A DNA stretch of 64,000 bases from Escherichia coli (GCF_965641715.1 NZ_OZ282453.1), one strand, 5' to 3'. Numbered from the stretch's first letter, positions 4,226 to 20,154 are shown. Made by a program: numbers and translations. The notes: generated by a model not told the origin, from the sequence alone.

Positions 4226-5440
4226 ATGAAGATCGTAAAGGCTGAAGTTTTTGTTACCTGTCCGGGGCGTAATTTCGTCACATTAAAAATCACCACTGAG
4301 GACGGTATTACGGGCCTTGGGGATGCCACCCTCAATGGACGTGAGCTTTCCGTGGCCTCTTATTTGCAGGATCACCTTTGTCCGCAGCTTATTGGTCGCG
4401 ATGCGCACCGTATCGAAGATATCTGGCAGTTTTTCTATAAAGGTGCTTACTGGCGTCGCGGTCCGGTTACGATGTCGGCCATTTCAGCGGTTGATATGGC
4501 GCTGTGGGATATTAAAGCCAAAGCTGCCAACATGCCGCTTTACCAGTTACTCGGCGGCGCATCTCGTGAAGGGGTGATGGTTTATTGCCATACCACCGGT
4601 CACAGTATTGATGAAGCTCTGGATGATTATGCCCGTCATCAGGAGCTGGGATTCAAAGCCATCCGCGTGCAGTGCGGAATCCCTGGTATGAAAACCACCT
4701 ACGGCATGTCGAAAGGTAAAGGTCTGGCTTATGAACCCGCAACCAAAGGACAGTGGCCGGAAGAGCAGCTGTGGTCGACGGAGAAATACCTCGATTTCAT
4801 GCCGAAATTGTTTGACGCGGTACGTAACAAGTTTGGTTTTAATGAACATTTGCTGCATGACATGCACCATCGCTTAACGCCTATTGAAGCGGCGCGCTTT
4901 GGTAAAAGCATTGAAGATTATCGCATGTTCTGGATGGAAGACCCGACGCCTGCGGAAAACCAGGAATGCTTCCGTCTCATTCGCCAACATACCGTCACAC
5001 CCATCGCAGTGGGTGAAGTCTTCAACAGCATCTGGGACTGCAAACAACTGATTGAAGAGCAACTCATCGATTATATCCGCACCACGCTGACCCATGCAGG
5101 CGGAATTACCGGTATGCGCCGGATTGCCGATTTTGCTTCGCTGTATCAGGTACGTACTGGCTCACACGGTCCTTCCGATTTGTCACCAGTCTGCATGGCT
5201 GCAGCGCTGCACTTTGATCTGTGGGTCCCCAATTTCGGTGTCCAGGAATACATGGGTTATTCCGAACAAATGCTCGAAGTCTTCCCGCACAACTGGACTT
5301 TCGATAACGGCTATATGCATCCGGGAGACAAACCGGGTCTTGGTATCGAATTCGATGAAAAGCTGGCGGCGAAATATCCCTATGAACCTGCTTATCTACC
5401 AGTCGCACGTCTGGAAGATGGCACGCTGTGGAACTGGTAA
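4226..5440 (+). CDS. rspA: enolase-superfamily mannonate dehydratase-like starvation-sensing protein
   Basis: ATG at 4226 gives [27 protein letters not shown]..., 404 aa. Confidence 0.92.
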
Positions 5441-14836: not shown

Positions 14837-15238
14837 GTGGCAAAAGTTTTTACACAAGAAGAGCGGGAAAAAATTAAAGGGCAGGTGGTGGAACTCGTGC
14901 GCCAGAGCGGTCGTGAGACGTTACGGCAACTGGAAGCTAAAACAGGTGCGACTAGATATCTGATGAGCGTTCTTGCCAGAGAGCTGGTAGCCAGTGGCGA
15001 TGTATACAACTCCGGCTACGGGTTATTCCCGTCTGAACAGGCGCGTAAGGACTGGCAAAACGCCCGCAAAAAACTATCGAGGGCAAAGGTGAAGAAAACA
15101 GCTGTGGTTGATCCGGACCTTATCTGGTCGTTACCTGATGGAGAAATACGTCGCTACGACAGTCGCCTAAACATAATCTGTCGCGAGTGCCGGATGAGTG
15201 AAGTTATGCAGCGCATACTGGCATTTTATCAGGGATAA
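14837..15238 (+). CDS. hypothetical 133-aa protein (winged-helix-like N-terminus, basic linker)
   Basis: GTG-start ORF after the replication gene. No helicase-loader motifs seen. Confidence 0.5.
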   Translation: MAKVFTQEEREKIKGQVVELVRQSGRETLRQLEAKTGATRYLMSVLARELVASGDVYNSGYGLFPSEQARKDWQNARKKLSRAKVKKTAVVDPDLIWSLPDGEIRRYDSRLNIICRECRMSEVMQRILAFYQG

Positions 15239-15619
15239 TGTTAGGTATTTTAGACGTTACTAGATTAAAAAGCATTAGTTCAGGAGTGAATTGACATTCT
15301 CATTTTTCATGGCACAGGGTAGATCTGGCGTGGTTGTCCGCTTTGTGCCAAGAGCGGACGTTGGTATGCAAGAGCCCTCCAAAAGTTGATGGTTGGTTTG
15401 CAGGGGGGCTTAAAGAAACTGCACTTATCAAGTTGAAGTTCTGTATTCAGCGAAATCGTAGCACTCTGACGATAAGTAACTCCGGTACTCCGCTCTTCGA
15501 TGAAGAACCAGAGTAATCCCCCCGAAAAACCAGCGCATCAAAATTGGATCTTCAGCGGTAGCTTATCGGCTATCGGAAGTACAGGTGTGGATTCGTGGTG
15601 AATTGCTTTGATAATAAAC

Positions 15620-15645
15620 GATTAATACGGAAAAACGTATTAATC
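15620..15645. terminator. hairpin GATTAATACG-gaaaaa-CGTATTAATC, terminator of the 449-aa gene
   Basis: Perfect 10-bp inverted repeat 28 nt downstream of the stop at 15673, with T-rich flanks on the minus strand. Confidence 0.6.
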
Positions 15646-15672
15646 ATTTATTAGCTTTTAGTAAACCACAAT

Positions 15673-17022
15673 TTATTCCGTTTTACATATCATAGTAGTC
15701 GATTGGAGAATATAGTTTCTGGGAATGTACTCTTCAAAGTGTTCGTCCTTTTTAAATACATGAACTACATTTGGGAATAATTGATAGTCAACAGGGTGTA
15801 TAGCGTTTGGATTATGGTACATGTACATGGCTGTACACCATGGTTCTTGATAGTTAGGGTCACTTACATCGGCTGAAAATGGATGTGGGGCTGCATCCTG
15901 ATCAGTTTTAACACCACTGACGTACACTTTGAATCCACTCGCCTCTACACCTGCAAGAATTCCCATCCGGTTAAACTTAGGTATGGTTGCTTGAGTAGTG
16001 AGTAAAACGGCAGAAACATAATTATTTTGTTCTGAGCCAAAAAAGTTCGACTTGATACTTCTATTTTCATCTGTATGTCTTTCAATAGAAATGCCTGACT
16101 CAATATCAATCCCGTACAAATAGCTATGCAAGGCTTCGCTTGAGAAGGCCATGGACATTCTTTTTGAATAATCCTGCATTGCTATGACAAATGGTTTGTT
16201 CTTTGTATGGTTGAGTTCCCAGTAATGAACTTTCTCTGGCTCAGGGCAATGCCGGACTTTTTTTAATAAACTTCTTGCAAACTTAAAAGGCATGACATTT
16301 AGAACATGTTTTCTTAATTCATCCATCTGTTCATCGTTAATGACTTTTCTTTCAAGAGGGGCTTCTGCTTCAGCAATGCTTACAGCCTCTACAGCAATTT
16401 CCACTCCAAATTTAGATAGCAGAAAATCTGGTTGATTGTATTCTCTATTCATTTCAAAGTCGAGTTCATAAAATACAGCGTTCAAATATAATTCAAATAA
16501 CCTTGAATTAAATGCATCACTTTGAAAATCCCTTATAAATATTCCATCAGGATCTTTGAACCAGTATGCAAGTTCCTCAAGAACAATATATGCAGGGAAA
16601 TGAGGAGGGTCTTCGAGGAGCATTTTTATATAAACATTCCTTTTTTTCTCTGGGACTTTACTCAAGAATAATGAAAAAGGTTTGGTTGATTCATCGCCTT
16701 GCATGAATGTACCATTTTGGTGCTGCGCCAGCATCTTTGGTATGTCATCGTTCAAATTATTAAGCAAGACATCCATTGAATCAAATGAAGCCAAGACGTT
16801 TATTGCTCTGAATTTTTTATCTAAATCCCGACCTAAGACTATTGCGTTAAAATCTTTATCAATATTGCATATGATTATTGTGGATAACAATGTTATCCCA
16901 TTCCCCTCATATTTAAACCAGCGTATCTCCTCAGAAAATGTCTTAAGGTAAGGTGAGCGACCGTAAAAATAAATATCAAATTGTTCTTTGCTGATCTCAC
17001 TGAAGTGTAATCCTGCGTTCAT
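15673..17022 (-). CDS. 449-aa orphan cytoplasmic protein; possible degenerate PD-(D/E)xK-like nuclease core; candidate defence/abortive-infection gene
   Basis: Single long ORF with SD AAGGAA. Strongly AT-rich and opposite in orientation to the flanking phage genes. Motif string RLFE177LYL...QPD199FLLSKFGVE208IAVE212AV. No TM segment, signal peptide or Walker A motif. Confidence 0.85.
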   Translation of the reverse strand: MNAGLHFSEISKEQFDIYFYGRSPYLKTFSEEIRWFKYEGNGITLLSTIIICNIDKDFNAIVLGRDLDKKFRAINVLASFDSMDVLLNNLNDDIPKMLAQHQNGTFMQGDESTKPFSLFLSKVPEKKRNVYIKMLLEDPPHFPAYIVLEELAYWFKDPDGIFIRDFQSDAFNSRLFELYLNAVFYELDFEMNREYNQPDFLLSKFGVEIAVEAVSIAEAEAPLERKVINDEQMDELRKHVLNVMPFKFARSLLKKVRHCPEPEKVHYWELNHTKNKPFVIAMQDYSKRMSMAFSSEALHSYLYGIDIESGISIERHTDENRSIKSNFFGSEQNNYVSAVLLTTQATIPKFNRMGILAGVEASGFKVYVSGVKTDQDAAPHPFSADVSDPNYQEPWCTAMYMYHNPNAIHPVDYQLFPNVVHVFKKDEHFEEYIPRNYILQSTTMICKTE

Positions 17023-17123
17023 ACCAATTCCTTTTCAATGAATAATTGGCCTTTAGGAGTGATTCCCTTTGTCTTTAATTCAGTTCTAACTAGTTCTTTA
17101 ATCCAATAGCCTAAGCTCATCAT
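17019..17123 (-). CDS. possible 34-aa leader/partner ORF translationally coupled to the 449-aa gene
   Basis: MMSLGYWIKELVRTELKTKGITPKGQLFIEKELV. Its TGA overlaps the ATG of the 449-aa gene (GTATGAAC). No clear SD. Confidence 0.25.
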   Translation of the reverse strand: MMSLGYWIKELVRTELKTKGITPKGQLFIEKELV

Positions 17124-17163
17124 GCAGTTGGATCATAAGACAACGCCCTATAGTGCTCGTGAT

Positions 17164-17191
17164 ACTATAGGGCATCTGACCACACTGTTAA
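17164..17191 (-). promoter_or_regulatory. predicted sigma70 promoter of the 449-aa gene (TTAACA-N16-TATAGT)
   Basis: On the minus strand the -35 is at 17186-17191 and the -10 at 17164-17169. The -10 lies inside the palindrome at 17145-17173. Confidence 0.45.
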
Positions 17192-17464
17192 CTGGAGTAA
17201 CGACTATGGCAGGAATACAGCATAACCAAACTCACCCCAAACTTACATAGCGCTTTCTGGCCGTGAGCATAACAAGGTCCACTCCTCGCTCAAAGCGGAC
17301 TAGAAGGTTAGCTTGTGTCGGACTTTGCGTATTAAATGACTAGTGGTTGAGCCCCATTTCCACAGAAAAAATCAGAGAAACTATACCCAATAGTTGTATT
17401 GAATCACTGACGAGACAGCCTCATATTCATCAGGACTGGTGTACGTCCAATACAGGAGGTTGTG

Positions 17465-17554
17465 GTGCTGGTTCTCAAATGTGCGCTGGCTATTACGGCT
17501 GTAATGGCGATTTATTGTCTTGCTATTGTTCTTATGGATCGCCTTTCTGACTGA
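17465..17554 (+). CDS. 29-aa hydrophobic peptide (30 aa if started at the adjacent GTG 17462): small membrane protein / type I toxin-like
   Basis: AGGAGG (17454-17459) lies 5 nt before GTG 17465. (M)LVLKCALAITAVMAIYCLAIVLMDRLSD, stop at 17552-17554. Confidence 0.45.
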   Translation: MLVLKCALAITAVMAIYCLAIVLMDRLSD

Positions 17555-17649
17555 TTTCACATTGGCGAGGTAACGGTAGTTAAGTAGAATGGCTGCGGGT
17601 GCTTGAGGCTATCTGCCTCGGGCATGAACACCAACGGCAGATAGAGAAA

Positions 17650-17717
17650 AGCCCCAGTTAACATTACGCGTCCTGCAAGACGCTTAACATTAATCTGAGG
17701 CCAATTTCATGCTAGAC
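17650..17717 (-). ncRNA. sok: Sok-like antisense RNA (approximate limits)
   Basis: Minus-strand promoter TTGCCT (17747-17752)-N17-TAACCT (17724-17729), antisense to the mok start region. The 3' end was not determined. Confidence 0.35.
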
Positions 17718-17921
17718 ACATGTAGGTTAGCCTCTTACGTGCCGAAAGGCAAGGAGAAGCAGGCTATGAAGCAGCAAAAGGCGATGTTAATCGCCCTGAT
17801 CGTCATCTGTTTAACCGTCATAGTGACGGCACTGGTAACGAGGAAAGACCTCTGCGAGGTACGAATCCGAACCGGGCAGACGGAGGTCGCTGTCTTCACA
17901 GCTTACGAACCTGAGGAGTAA
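17709..17921 (+). CDS. mok: Mok (modulator of killing) reading frame overlapping hok
   Basis: 70-aa ORF that starts upstream of hok and reads through it in the same frame. This is standard hok/mok architecture. Confidence 0.6.
   Translation: MLDTCRLASYVPKGKEKQAMKQQKAMLIALIVICLTVIVTALVTRKDLCEVRIRTGQTEVAVFTAYEPEE
17766..17921 (+). CDS. hokD: Hok/Gef-family type I membrane toxin
   Basis: MKQQKAMLIALIVICLTVIVTALVTRKDLCEVRIRTGQTEVAVFTAYEPEE (51 aa). Confidence 0.9.
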   Translation: MKQQKAMLIALIVICLTVIVTALVTRKDLCEVRIRTGQTEVAVFTAYEPEE

Positions 17922-17989
17922 GAGACCCGGCGAGGGAGAAATCCCTCGCCACCTCTGATGTGGCAGGCATCCTCAACGCACCCGCACTT

Positions 17990-18012
17990 AACCCGCTTCG
18001 GCGGGTTTTTGT
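17990..18012 (+). terminator. rho-independent terminator of hok mRNA
   Basis: ACCCGC-ttcg-GCGGGT followed by a T-run. Confidence 0.75.
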
Positions 18013-18137
18013 TTTTATTTTCAACGCGTTTGAAGTTCTGGACGGTGCCGGAATAGAATCAAAAATACTTAAGTAGCGCGCAGGGATAAGAGGGATGGTC
18101 CCTTAAAGGGGAGAGCTAATTATCCGGAAGGATTCTG

Positions 18138-18389
18138 ATGATGAACATCGAAGAACTGCGTAAAATTTTTTGTGAAGATGGCCTCTATGCGGTGTGCGTT
18201 GAAAATGGAAATCTTGTTAGTCATTACCGCATTATGTGTTTGCGAAAGAATGGGGCTGCGTTAATTAATTTTGTGGATGGTCGAGTGACAGACGGATTTA
18301 TCTTGCGCGAAGGTGAGTTTGTCACTTCATTACAGGCACTGAAAGAGATCGGAATAAAAGCAGGCTTTTCAGCTTTTGCAGAAGAATAA
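18138..18389 (+). CDS. rem: 83-aa protein at the rem position
   Basis: SD GGAAGGA. Same length (83 aa) and synteny (hok - rem - ydfU) as K-12 Rem. Sequence identity not verified. Confidence 0.5.
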   Translation: MMNIEELRKIFCEDGLYAVCVENGNLVSHYRIMCLRKNGAALINFVDGRVTDGFILREGEFVTSLQALKEIGIKAGFSAFAEE

Positions 18390-18455
18390 ACTCATCTACA
18401 ATCTTGCGCGGGGCTGAACTCCCGCTGAGTAACACCGTGCCACCGGAGAAAACCG

Positions 18456-18734
18456 ATGGCACGCAACGTAAAATATTACAATTCTGATAATTCGCCCGTT
18501 CTTGCCTGCACGCACGAGCGGTATTCTCACGCATTCAAGTCTGAATGGTTCCAACACCCTCCATGCACTGAAGAGCAGGCTGAATGGATAATTCAGTGTT
18601 ACTGCAGGCGCGGATACGAGGTTAAGAAAGCCCTTAGTCTCGACTACCGTCACTGGATAATCTCAGTCAGATTGCCTTACTCCGAACGCCCACCACGTGC
18701 GTCCCGCACTTTCCAGCAACGGATCTGGAGGTAA
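18456..18734 (+). CDS. hypothetical 92-aa Cys/His-containing protein
   Basis: SD GGAG 8 nt upstream. The stop abuts the ydfU start (coupled). Confidence 0.5.
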   Translation: MARNVKYYNSDNSPVLACTHERYSHAFKSEWFQHPPCTEEQAEWIIQCYCRRGYEVKKALSLDYRHWIISVRLPYSERPPRASRTFQQRIWR

Positions 18735-18735
18735 C

Positions 18736-19785
18736 GTGCGGGTATTACTTAGACCTGTTCTGGTGCCTGAGCTTGGGCTGGTGGTCCTTAAGCCGGGCCG
18801 TGAATCCATACAGATATTTCATAATCCTCGAGTGCTGGTGGAACCGGAACCAAAAAGCATGCGTAATCTGCCATCCGGAGTCGTTCCTGCCGTTGGCCAG
18901 CCGCTGGCGGAAGACAAAACATTGCTGCCGTTTTTTAGTAACGAACGGGTGATTCGTGCTGCTGGCGGCGTTGGCGCATTGTCTGACTGGCTATTACGTC
19001 ATGTTACATCCTGCCAGTGGCCTAATGGAGATTACCATCACACTGAAACAGTCATTCACCGTTATGGTACCGGCGCAATGGTGTTGTGTTGGCACTGCGA
19101 CAACCAACTGCGTGACCAGACATCGGAATCACTGGAGCTGCTTGCTCAACAAAATCTGACAGCATGGGTGATTGACGTCATCCGTCACGCAATAAGCGGT
19201 ACGCAGGAGCGGGAATTATCTTTGGCTGAATTATCCTGGTGGGCGGTCTGCAATCAGGTGGTGGATGCACTACCTGAGGCTGTATCGCGTCGTTCGCTGG
19301 GATTACCAGCGGAAAAAATCTGCTCGGTGTACCGCGAAAGCGACATCGTACCGGGAGAGCAGACCGCCACCAGCATACTGAAACAGCGCACAAAAAATCT
19401 TGCGCCGCTGCCTCACGCCCACCAGCAACAGAACCCACCACAGGAAAAGACGGTGGTCAGCATTGCCGTTGATCCTGAGTCTCCGGAATCTTTCATGAAA
19501 CGACCTAAACGTCGCCGCTGGGTTAACGAGAAATACAAACGCTGGGTGAAGACACAGCCGTGTGCGTGTTGTGGTAAGCCAGCCGACGATCCCCATCACC
19601 TGATTGGTCATGGTCAGGGCGGAATGGGGACAAAATCTCACGATATTTTCACGCTACCGCTGTGTCGGGAGCATCACAACGAGCTTCATGCGGATCCTCT
19701 GGCGTTCGAAGAAAAGCATGGTTCTCAGGTTGATTTAATTTTTCGTTTTCTTGATCACGCCTTTGCAACTGGCGTGCTTGGGTAA
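18736..19785 (+). CDS. ydfU: DUF968 protein with C-terminal HNH-like zinc motif
   Basis: GGAGG then GTG 18736 gives 349 aa. C-terminus: CACCGKPADDPHHLIGHGQGGMGTKSHDIFTLPLCREHHNELH. Confidence 0.8.
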   Translation: MRVLLRPVLVPELGLVVLKPGRESIQIFHNPRVLVEPEPKSMRNLPSGVVPAVGQPLAEDKTLLPFFSNERVIRAAGGVGALSDWLLRHVTSCQWPNGDYHHTETVIHRYGTGAMVLCWHCDNQLRDQTSESLELLAQQNLTAWVIDVIRHAISGTQERELSLAELSWWAVCNQVVDALPEAVSRRSLGLPAEKICSVYRESDIVPGEQTATSILKQRTKNLAPLPHAHQQQNPPQEKTVVSIAVDPESPESFMKRPKRRRWVNEKYKRWVKTQPCACCGKPADDPHHLIGHGQGGMGTKSHDIFTLPLCREHHNELHADPLAFEEKHGSQVDLIFRFLDHAFATGVLG

Positions 19786-19797
19786 AAGAGGTGACTG

Positions 19798-20154
19798 ATG
19801 CTCATAGATTTGGTTTTACCTTACCCGCCGACGGTGAACACTTACTGGCGACGCCGTGGCAGCACATATTTTATCTCGGAGGAGGGAAAGCGTTATCGCC
19901 GGGCTGTGGCGCTTATTGTTCGCCAGCAGCGGCTGAAATTAAGCCTGTCCGGAAGGCTGGCGATAAAGGTGATTGCAGAGCCACCGGATAAGCGTCGTCG
20001 CGACCTGGACAATATCCTGAAAGCACCGCTGGATGCGCTGACGCATGCGGGAGTGTTAATGGACGATGAGCAGTTTGATGAAATCAATATCGTTCGTGGT
20101 CAGCCAGTATCTGGCGGACGTCTGGGGGTGAAGATTTACCCCATAATGCATTAA
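19798..20154 (+). CDS. rusA: RusA-family Holliday-junction resolvase
   Basis: 118 aa. ...PPDKRRRDLDNILKAPLDALTHAGVLMDDEQ... matches the RusA catalytic Asp cluster. Confidence 0.88.
   Translation: MLIDLVLPYPPTVNTYWRRRGSTYFISEEGKRYRRAVALIVRQQRLKLSLSGRLAIKVIAEPPDKRRRDLDNILKAPLDALTHAGVLMDDEQFDEINIVRGQPVSGGRLGVKIYPIMH

Follow-up and report, generated by a model that had tools for sequence, protein, structure and literature searches.

The closest described systems to the element reported here are the type I toxin–antitoxin pairs such as TisB/IstR-1, the Hok/Gef family, small single-pass membrane proteins such as KdpF or AcrZ, and the morons of lambdoid phages. The mRNAs of known type I toxins (hok, tisB, shoB, and zorO) carry long leaders that lock translation, and other bacterial proteins of at most 50 amino acids (aa) with one transmembrane (TM) helix bind and modulate larger membrane proteins or the membrane itself. 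Here, we analysed a stretch of 64,000 nucleotides (nt) of Escherichia coli (GCF_965641715.1, NZ_OZ282453.1), referred to as the window, in which a hydrophobic small open reading frame (ORF) on the + strand, next to hok, had been proposed from the sequence alone to encode a type I toxin-like membrane protein. With a probability of roughly 60%, this ORF (17465..17554) is a genuine small membrane protein gene that is not antisense-controlled.

The ORF comprises 29 codons and a TGA stop codon (17552-17554), and its product reads MLVLKCALAITAVMAIYCLAIVLMDRLSD. A Shine-Dalgarno (SD) sequence AGGAGG on the + strand (17454-17459) and GTG triplets at both 17462 and 17465 were read directly from the sequence, and the original prediction had placed all of these elements correctly. 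It had left the length at 29-30 aa, of which only the shorter form stood. The second GTG (17465) is invariant among the homologues, first in a 15-locus alignment and later in 102 loci, and is an ATG on the invasion plasmids (pINV) described below; the first GTG (17462) is replaced in homologues by GTC, GCC, TAT, or GTT. The product is therefore 29 aa long and not 30. AGGAGG stands 5 nt before 17465, a normal spacing, and only 2 nt before 17462, which is too short, and in all aligned loci GGAG(G/A) is invariant, with GGAG 5-6 nt before the start. The coding sequence from 17465 corresponds exactly to WP_000960667.1 of the annotation pipeline PGAP, annotated in one genome. Entries of this type are missing from most PGAP annotations, including those of genomes identical to the window, and calling the ORF unannotated was thus right for most genomes and wrong for WP_000960667.1 and the REL606/BL21 records.

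The peptide shows a single predicted TM helix with K5 on its N-terminal side and the tail DRLSD at the other end. Its grand average of hydropathy (GRAVY) is 1.74, with a mean hydropathy of 2.58 over residues 6-24, and AlphaFold2, given the 30-aa form, returned one continuous helix that spans residues 2-29 and has a predicted local distance difference test (pLDDT) score of 92, in line with the TM helix and short charged tail expected beforehand. The peptide is in this respect a small (<60 aa) hydrophobic protein with one TM helix, as type I toxins are.

The variation among homologous loci is that of a coding sequence. Loci were collected from complete E. coli genomes, from a search with one genome per species, which gave E. 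ruysiae, E. albertii, and Shigella as well as E. coli-like contigs in mis-binned metagenome-assembled genomes, and from IMG/VR, where 295 stretches matched and 80 of these were fetched. The frame is open over 29 codons, with a GTG start and a TGA stop, in 102 of 102 loci, which represent 21 nucleotide haplotypes and 12 peptide variants. Polymorphic sites are distributed 7:5:15 over codon positions 1, 2, and 3, and the ratio of nonsynonymous to synonymous polymorphism (pN/pS) of 0.23 is the lowest of the six frames, the others giving 0.70 and 1.35 on the + strand and 0.35-0.77 on the - strand. Counted as minimal mutational events, 17 of 29 changes are synonymous, compared with 8.7 expected when mutations were simulated at random under the transition bias seen in the data (P approximately 0.001), and the 12 replacements (L/M, A/T/V, I/V, M/V/T, D/E, R/H, and C/Y) are more conservative than random ones (P approximately 0.009).

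Two longer frames overlap the ORF, one of 67 aa on the + strand (17347..17550) and one of 59 aa on the - strand (17381..17560). Both had been regarded as artefacts, and this view held: the alternative overlapping frames are anything from 22 to 104 codons long, the pN/pS of 1.35 belongs to the 67-aa frame, and one - frame contains stops in 6 of the 21 haplotypes. Comparing the conservation of the peptide frame with that of the overlapping ones, a check suggested along with the original prediction, showed that the ORF frame is kept and the others are not. Start, stop, and length are constant, the SD lies at a functional spacing, and purifying selection on amino acids is seen in this frame only. 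As judged from these alignments, the amino-acid sequence of the peptide is under purifying selection, also where hok has been lost.

The expression signals of the ORF were conserved as well. A predicted sigma-70 promoter on the + strand (17399..17427) consists of the -35 box TTGAAT (17399-17404), a 17-nt spacer, and the -10 box CATATT (17422-17427), the very boxes that had been guessed at the outset, with a predicted transcription start site (TSS) at about 17433-17436 and a predicted leader of about 30 nt. A relaxed scan of the + strand over 17380-17640 gave three hits, namely this promoter and two overlapping versions of the hok promoter. The same arrangement (TTGAAT, TTGAAG, or TTGAGT, 17 nt, CATATT) is found at equal distance to the start codon in five lineages, namely the main lineage, loci L004/L015, loci L074/L073, locus L013, and pINV, between which the spacer and the DNA further upstream are diverged or unalignable. 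The signals are in this sense phylogenetically footprinted, the promoter itself being a predicted one. Within the 5' untranslated region (UTR), the motif TACGTC(C/A)A (17442..17449, + strand) is invariant in the main, L004/L015, L074/L073, and pINV lineages, and the neighbouring UTR bases vary. A pairing of the small RNA (sRNA) DicF with this motif was considered and rejected, as inspection yielded only about 5 bp.

Upstream of the promoter, the main lineage carries a block (17277..17398) at which homology among loci with unrelated cargo genes begins. Compared with many homologues, the window lacks a 14-nt segment, AGAAGTGCTGGTGG, at 17337/17338 and differs by a 1-nt indel at 17368; the block is therefore non-coding. 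Neither of its strands folds better than shuffled sequences. It opens with a hairpin, GTCC(A/G)CT-N10-AGCGGAC (17277-17300), at the right edge of a variable cargo slot; the left arm of the hairpin is semi-conserved, and the homology between loci starts at or in it. The hairpin could be a recombination boundary or a terminator-like element. A 17/19 match to it was also observed upstream of relB in the Qin prophage of K-12 (L107, ~4982-5000). Back-to-back with the ORF promoter lies a candidate divergent promoter on the - strand (17380-17407), with the -35 box GTGATT (the reverse complement of 17402-17407), a 16-nt spacer, and the -10 box TATAGT (the reverse complement of 17380-17385). In the form (G/T/C)TGA(T/C)T-16-TATAGT it occurs in the main and pINV lineages and is absent from the three others, L004/L015 and L074 included.

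A minimal conserved cassette of about 175 bp (17396..17570, + strand) extends from the promoter through the UTR and the ORF to about 16 nt beyond the stop codon. The ORF is its best-conserved island by segment identities: in L015, the ORF is 81% identical, compared with 30% upstream and 34-38% downstream, which amounts to unrelated sequence. In L014 and L015, both located in Rac-like prophages, a convergent TehB-family gene takes the place of hok after the cassette. By these comparisons, the cassette moves independently of hok and of both flanks. At a coverage of at least 80%, it is present in 1834 of 5426 complete E. coli genomes (34%), in up to three places per genome and mostly unannotated, and it was also found in the phages mEp460, Tritos, Evi, and HannyBb. 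Own promoter (predicted) and patchy presence among syntenic phages are as in morons; an own terminator was not identified.

Several lineages reveal what has happened to the cassette over time. In BL21/C43, a fusion of the DUF977 gene replaces everything upstream of the SD, so that the own promoter of the ORF is deleted and the ORF itself is intact. The DUF977 gene of C43(DE3)/BL21 (L005, 1204-1563) has 360 nt compared with 402 nt and overlaps the start of the ORF. In sequence type 131 (ST131) and O157, cargo overwrote the first ~20 codons, and only the last 7-11 codons are left upstream of hokD, visible as the remnants "...MDHLSD*" in ST131 (L104, ~1199-1224) and "...VVVLMGRLSF*" in O157:H7 (L105, ~1196-1231). 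K-12, the strain with ribosome profiling data on start codons (Ribo-RET), carries relBE at this position of its Qin prophage and no cassette, and small-protein screens in K-12 would therefore have missed the ORF. YnfS, another 29-aa protein of K-12 Qin, is unrelated by inspection of its translated sequence.

A diverged copy resides on the invasion plasmids of Shigella and enteroinvasive E. coli (EIEC). In a tblastn search against plasmids, 143 Shigella and E. coli plasmids matched, most of them with a 72%-identical copy, MLVLKGTLAIAAVMTIYCLIVVLMERFSD. On the EIEC plasmid that was examined, the copy (L109, 3001-3090, corresponding to NZ_CP011417, 133249-133335) is unannotated and lies between ospZ and icsP, the ORF stop being 291 bp upstream of the icsP start codon. 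It is intact, with an ATG start and the SD and -35/-10 boxes kept. Only a degenerate hok promoter and a leader stub follow at its 3' side, the hok gene being gone. Between this copy and that of the window, 21 nt differ, distributed 10:1:10 by codon position, with a ratio of nonsynonymous to synonymous substitution rates (dN/dS) of 0.18. Since this value was reached despite the loss of hok, selection acts on the peptide itself, independently of hok. No description of the peptide was found in the literature on the icsP/ospZ intergenic region.

The assignment to the type I toxins was not supported. The original prediction had seen no antisense RNA by eye, and searches for promoters, repeats, duplexes, and Rfam families found none either. 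Over 17410-17640, no sigma-70-like promoter with at least 8/12 matches was detected on the minus strand, and none was conserved across six lineages; the mRNA shares no repeats of 10 nt or more, direct or inverted, with nearby DNA. RNA-RNA duplex predictions of the mRNA with either strand of the upstream block gave no consistent signal, the single outlier being the minus strand of L015 (z = -2.75, one of eight tests). In the interval 15000-20000, Rfam revealed no known sRNA over or beside the ORF, only hok/sok and sub-threshold matches to isrK, rsmX, and ceN48. The mRNA (17434-17600) folds no better than shuffled sequences (z = +0.32), the pairing of the SD in the fold is weak and not conserved, and the predicted leader of about 30 nt is not a long, structured, inert one. 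Three lineages have other DNA in place of the upstream block, and BL21 has lost it, so that the block is not co-inherited with the ORF; by these computational searches, no antisense sRNA gene is inherited together with it.

Similarity searches point in the same direction. No match to the peptide was obtained in Pfam, NCBIfam, or PHROG (E <= 10) or in PADLOC (E <= 1), with Hok/Gef, Ldr, TisB, Ibs, ShoB, ZorO, DinQ, and Fst being the toxin families considered, and an exhaustive HMMER search against 1.84 billion representatives returned only members of its own family at 83-100% identity, some with spurious N-terminal extensions from gene callers. The possibility of a remnant of a longer protein was dismissed, as only these near-identical matches and no distant family came up. 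Against Hok, TisB, ZorO, DinQ, ShoB, Ldr, and Ibs, the peptide scored no better than shuffled controls. A degenerate hok duplicate was likewise rejected, with no protein or DNA similarity to hok. Of the toxin likeness proposed originally, size and hydrophobicity therefore stood and likeness in sequence did not: the ORF resembles a type I toxin only in these two features, which are common to many benign small membrane proteins. Lacking a conserved antisense promoter, a complementary repeat, a structured UTR, and toxin similarity, it fits better with the other option that had been mentioned, a small regulatory membrane protein.

The ORF is located in a lambdoid prophage. The region 17020-17770 matches E. 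coli chromosomes including NZ_AP017610 at 100% identity, and there it belongs to a Qin-like prophage with the order dicB, cI/cro-like, ydaT-like, replication genes, DUF977 gene, 449-aa gene on the - strand, hokD, rem, ydfU, rusA, and Q. The viable phage mEp460_ev081 displays the same gene arrangement. Next to the ORF, as had been claimed, lies a complete hok/sok locus (17597..18007, + strand), comprising a leader with the sok region (17597-17771), the hokD coding sequence (17766-17921), and a terminator (17990-18007). Rfam RF01794 (sok/hok-leader) matched 17597-17771 with 115 bits, starting 7 nt after the -10 box of hok, and Pfam HOK_GEF matched 17766-17921 (1e-23); in identical genomes, the gene is named hokD by PGAP. 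Its promoter, TTGGCG-17-TAGAAT, was found in the promoter scan at 17562..17590 on the + strand, and only its -35 box overlaps the 3' edge of the cassette, which usually, and not always, lies 43 nt upstream of the hok transcription start. A putative terminator inside the ORF (17489-17508) was discarded, being weak, without a real T-run after it, and not conserved in L015.

Some further features of the hok locus were recorded. The 5' end of the hok mRNA, GGGUGC (17597-17602), is complementary to GCACCC (17978-17983) just before the terminator, a pairing that would be consistent with the fold-back inhibition known from hok of plasmid R1. The sub-threshold isrK match (17930-18011; 25.7 bits versus a gathering score of 50) covers the hok 3' end and the terminator and probably reflects a mere terminator-like structure. 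In L009, L055, L073, and L076, the hok leader is interrupted by an insertion, always at the same point some 30 nt before the hok start codon, between …CAAGGAG and ATGTATGGG…; in L009, it is an IS481-family transposase, and the small ORF upstream is intact in these prophages.

On its other side, the cassette borders on variable cargo. A slot (~17023-17300) between the DUF977 (ydaW-like) gene and the module of small ORF and hok has equivalents in L002-L015 and L102-L104, which contain a RelA/SpoT-domain protein, DUF4145, a tetratricopeptide repeat (TPR) protein, QueH, or MFS/BCCT transporters with a LysR regulator. In the window, the neighbouring gene on the - strand (15673..17022) encodes a 449-aa homologue of the anti-phage defence protein PD-T7-1 (PADLOC PDLC04073, E = 4e-157) without a Pfam domain. 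PD-T7-1 is a validated defence system (Vassallo et al. 2022, PMC9519451). This cargo beside the upstream block was found in only 11 complete genomes, and the block itself is widespread. Comparison of these loci indicates a hotspot of cargo and defence genes in Qin/Rac-like prophages, with the cassette as the marker of its right edge.

Taken together, we favour a small membrane protein gene in which 17465-17554 would encode a translated 29-aa single-pass inner-membrane peptide; its own sigma-70 promoter would drive expression, the transcript having a 5' UTR about 30 nt long, and translation would begin at a GTG behind a consensus SD. Because the ORF lies on that strand, additional expression from the early-right phage operon is probable. 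The peptide would insert into the inner membrane, probably in an N-in/C-out orientation, which is suggested by K5 on one side and the acidic DRLSD on the other, and would, by analogy with other proteins of this size, probably fulfil a moron-type prophage function by binding and modulating either the membrane or a larger protein in it. A lethal toxin restrained by an antisense RNA is probably not its role, and the cassette may be regarded as an autonomous moron-like unit in Qin/Rac-like lambdoid prophages of Escherichia and Shigella. Several points weigh against this reading. No convincing terminator was found from the end of the ORF (17554) to the hok TSS (~17597); the selection tests use only 87 nt and related haplotypes, so that their P-values are approximate; and the cassette has been overwritten in major lineages (ST131 and O157) and is therefore dispensable. 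The lack of a consensus antisense promoter is not the lack of a weak or non-sigma-70 one, and overproduction of small hydrophobic peptides is often toxic, irrespective of their natural function.

Among the alternatives, a type I toxin that depolarises or permeabilises the inner membrane, its mRNA being neutralised by an unrecognised sRNA, is unlikely. Size, hydrophobicity, and a short charged tail like those of TisB, ZorO, DinQ, and ShoB as well as the prophage location beside another type I system would suit it, and in the main and pINV lineages the divergent promoter candidate and the distal hairpin (17277-17300) could delimit a divergent RNA of about 100 nt on the minus strand (~17377 to 17277), along the lines of istR/tisB, ohsC/shoB, and orzO/zorO. 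However, L004/L015 and L074 keep the ORF without the divergent promoter or the upstream block, and BL21/C43 lost the region upstream of the SD, and with it any upstream antitoxin, yet keep the ORF. Neither a repeat or complementarity between the block and the mRNA nor a conserved minus-strand promoter within or 3' of the ORF was present, the short unstructured UTR with its consensus SD is unlike the long locked leaders, and no toxin-family model matched. A phage function tied to the location, namely superinfection exclusion, an abortive-infection helper of the defence cargo, or a modulator of Hok or lysis timing, is improbable to a similar degree. The ORF always stands at the right edge of the cargo hotspot (PD-T7-1, RelA/SpoT-domain, DUF4145, TPR genes, and others), usually abuts hok, and is present in viable temperate phages, but the cargo is unrelated between loci, so that no specific partner co-varies with the ORF, which is moreover kept on pINV without hok or a prophage context, and hok loci function in lineages with a truncated ORF.

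We consider it very unlikely that the ORF is a mere translated leader within an upstream regulatory element or promoter for hok, with read-through from the ORF promoter across that of hok causing promoter occlusion or a 5'-extended hok mRNA. The missing intrinsic terminator and the overlap of the cassette 3' edge with the hok -35 box would allow for this, but selection acts at the amino-acid level (dN/dS 0.18-0.23, conservative replacements), the ORF persists without hok, and many hok loci are without the ORF. There is just as little probability that no gene exists at all and that a chance frame lies in DNA conserved by hitch-hiking with hok or by recent spread through recombination: although the ORF is very short, its haplotypes are closely related (81-100% identity), and PGAP leaves it unannotated in most genomes, this reading is at odds with the excess of third-position changes, the lowest pN/pS of six frames (simulation P approximately 0.001), the change of the start from GTG to ATG and the almost invariant position 2 in the 77%-identical pINV copy, and with an ORF that is the best-conserved island between unrelated flanks, its SD and promoter being footprinted. 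A broader, still doubtful possibility is a new orphan family of membrane-active lambdoid-prophage peptides, acting as an unconventionally controlled toxin or as an effector of phage exclusion or prophage maintenance, and domesticated on pINV upstream of icsP; its control would possibly dispense with cis-antisense RNA and be transcriptional, proteolytic, or exerted by a lineage-specific divergent sRNA. If the peptide were indeed a membrane-active effector, the small membrane proteins encoded by prophages would gain a new family; if not, it is a further small membrane protein awaiting characterisation.

In any case, there is a gap in annotation: the cassette, present in about one third of the complete E. 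coli genomes, in several temperate coliphages, and on most invasion plasmids of Shigella, is mostly unannotated. The ORF is an example of a selected small ORF that is invisible to small-protein catalogues based on K-12, where relBE takes its place, and for the mining of cargo and defence genes the cassette provides a landmark as the right boundary of the hotspot in Qin/Rac-like prophages. A literature search with the accession, the peptide strings, and terms for hokD, small protein, and prophage returned no description of the peptide. As a gene, the ORF is solid and unremarkable in its class; its distribution, at a hotspot boundary and on pINV upstream of icsP, is mildly interesting.

In comparison with known proteins, WP_000960667.1 as well as ACT39199.1 and ACT43394.1 of REL606/BL21 belong to the same 29-aa family, with 86-93% identity and the same place upstream of hokD. 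These are computational entries, termed "conserved hypothetical" or "membrane protein", without a name, family, or function, so that the peptide is already in the databases as an unnamed protein and is a new orphan among the small single-pass membrane proteins of mobile elements. With TisB/IstR-1, ShoB/OhsC, ZorO/OrzO, and DinQ/AgrB it has in common that a hydrophobic peptide of 26-29 aa forms a single helix with a short polar terminus and is encoded on accessory or horizontally acquired DNA; in some lineages, a divergent promoter candidate also lies upstream of the ORF. In contrast to this class, it has no detectable similarity to the toxin sequences, no complementary sRNA, and no co-inherited sRNA region, and its leader is short and unstructured with the consensus SD exposed. 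The Hok/Gef family (PF01848) is likewise represented by a small membrane peptide of the same prophage module, with adjacent promoters, but our peptide has no Pfam match, scores no better than shuffles against HokD of the window, and is devoid of the periplasmic Cys-containing domain, mok, the sok region, and fbi elements. In length class, with one TM helix and hardly any soluble part, it resembles KdpF, AcrZ, MgtS, MgrB, CydX, and PmrR, and, like KdpF- and AcrZ-type genes, it has an ordinary promoter and SD and no antisense partner. It differs from them in not lying beside a candidate partner gene and in being borne by prophages and plasmids, restricted to Escherichia and Shigella. No homology to this group was found; the best score was obtained for YshB, with P of about 0.003 uncorrected for 16 comparisons. 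Finally, lambdoid morons such as bor and lom of phage lambda also have their own promoter, sit at a module boundary, and are present in some and absent from other, similar prophages; compared with these classic morons, the cassette is much smaller and no own terminator was identified for it.

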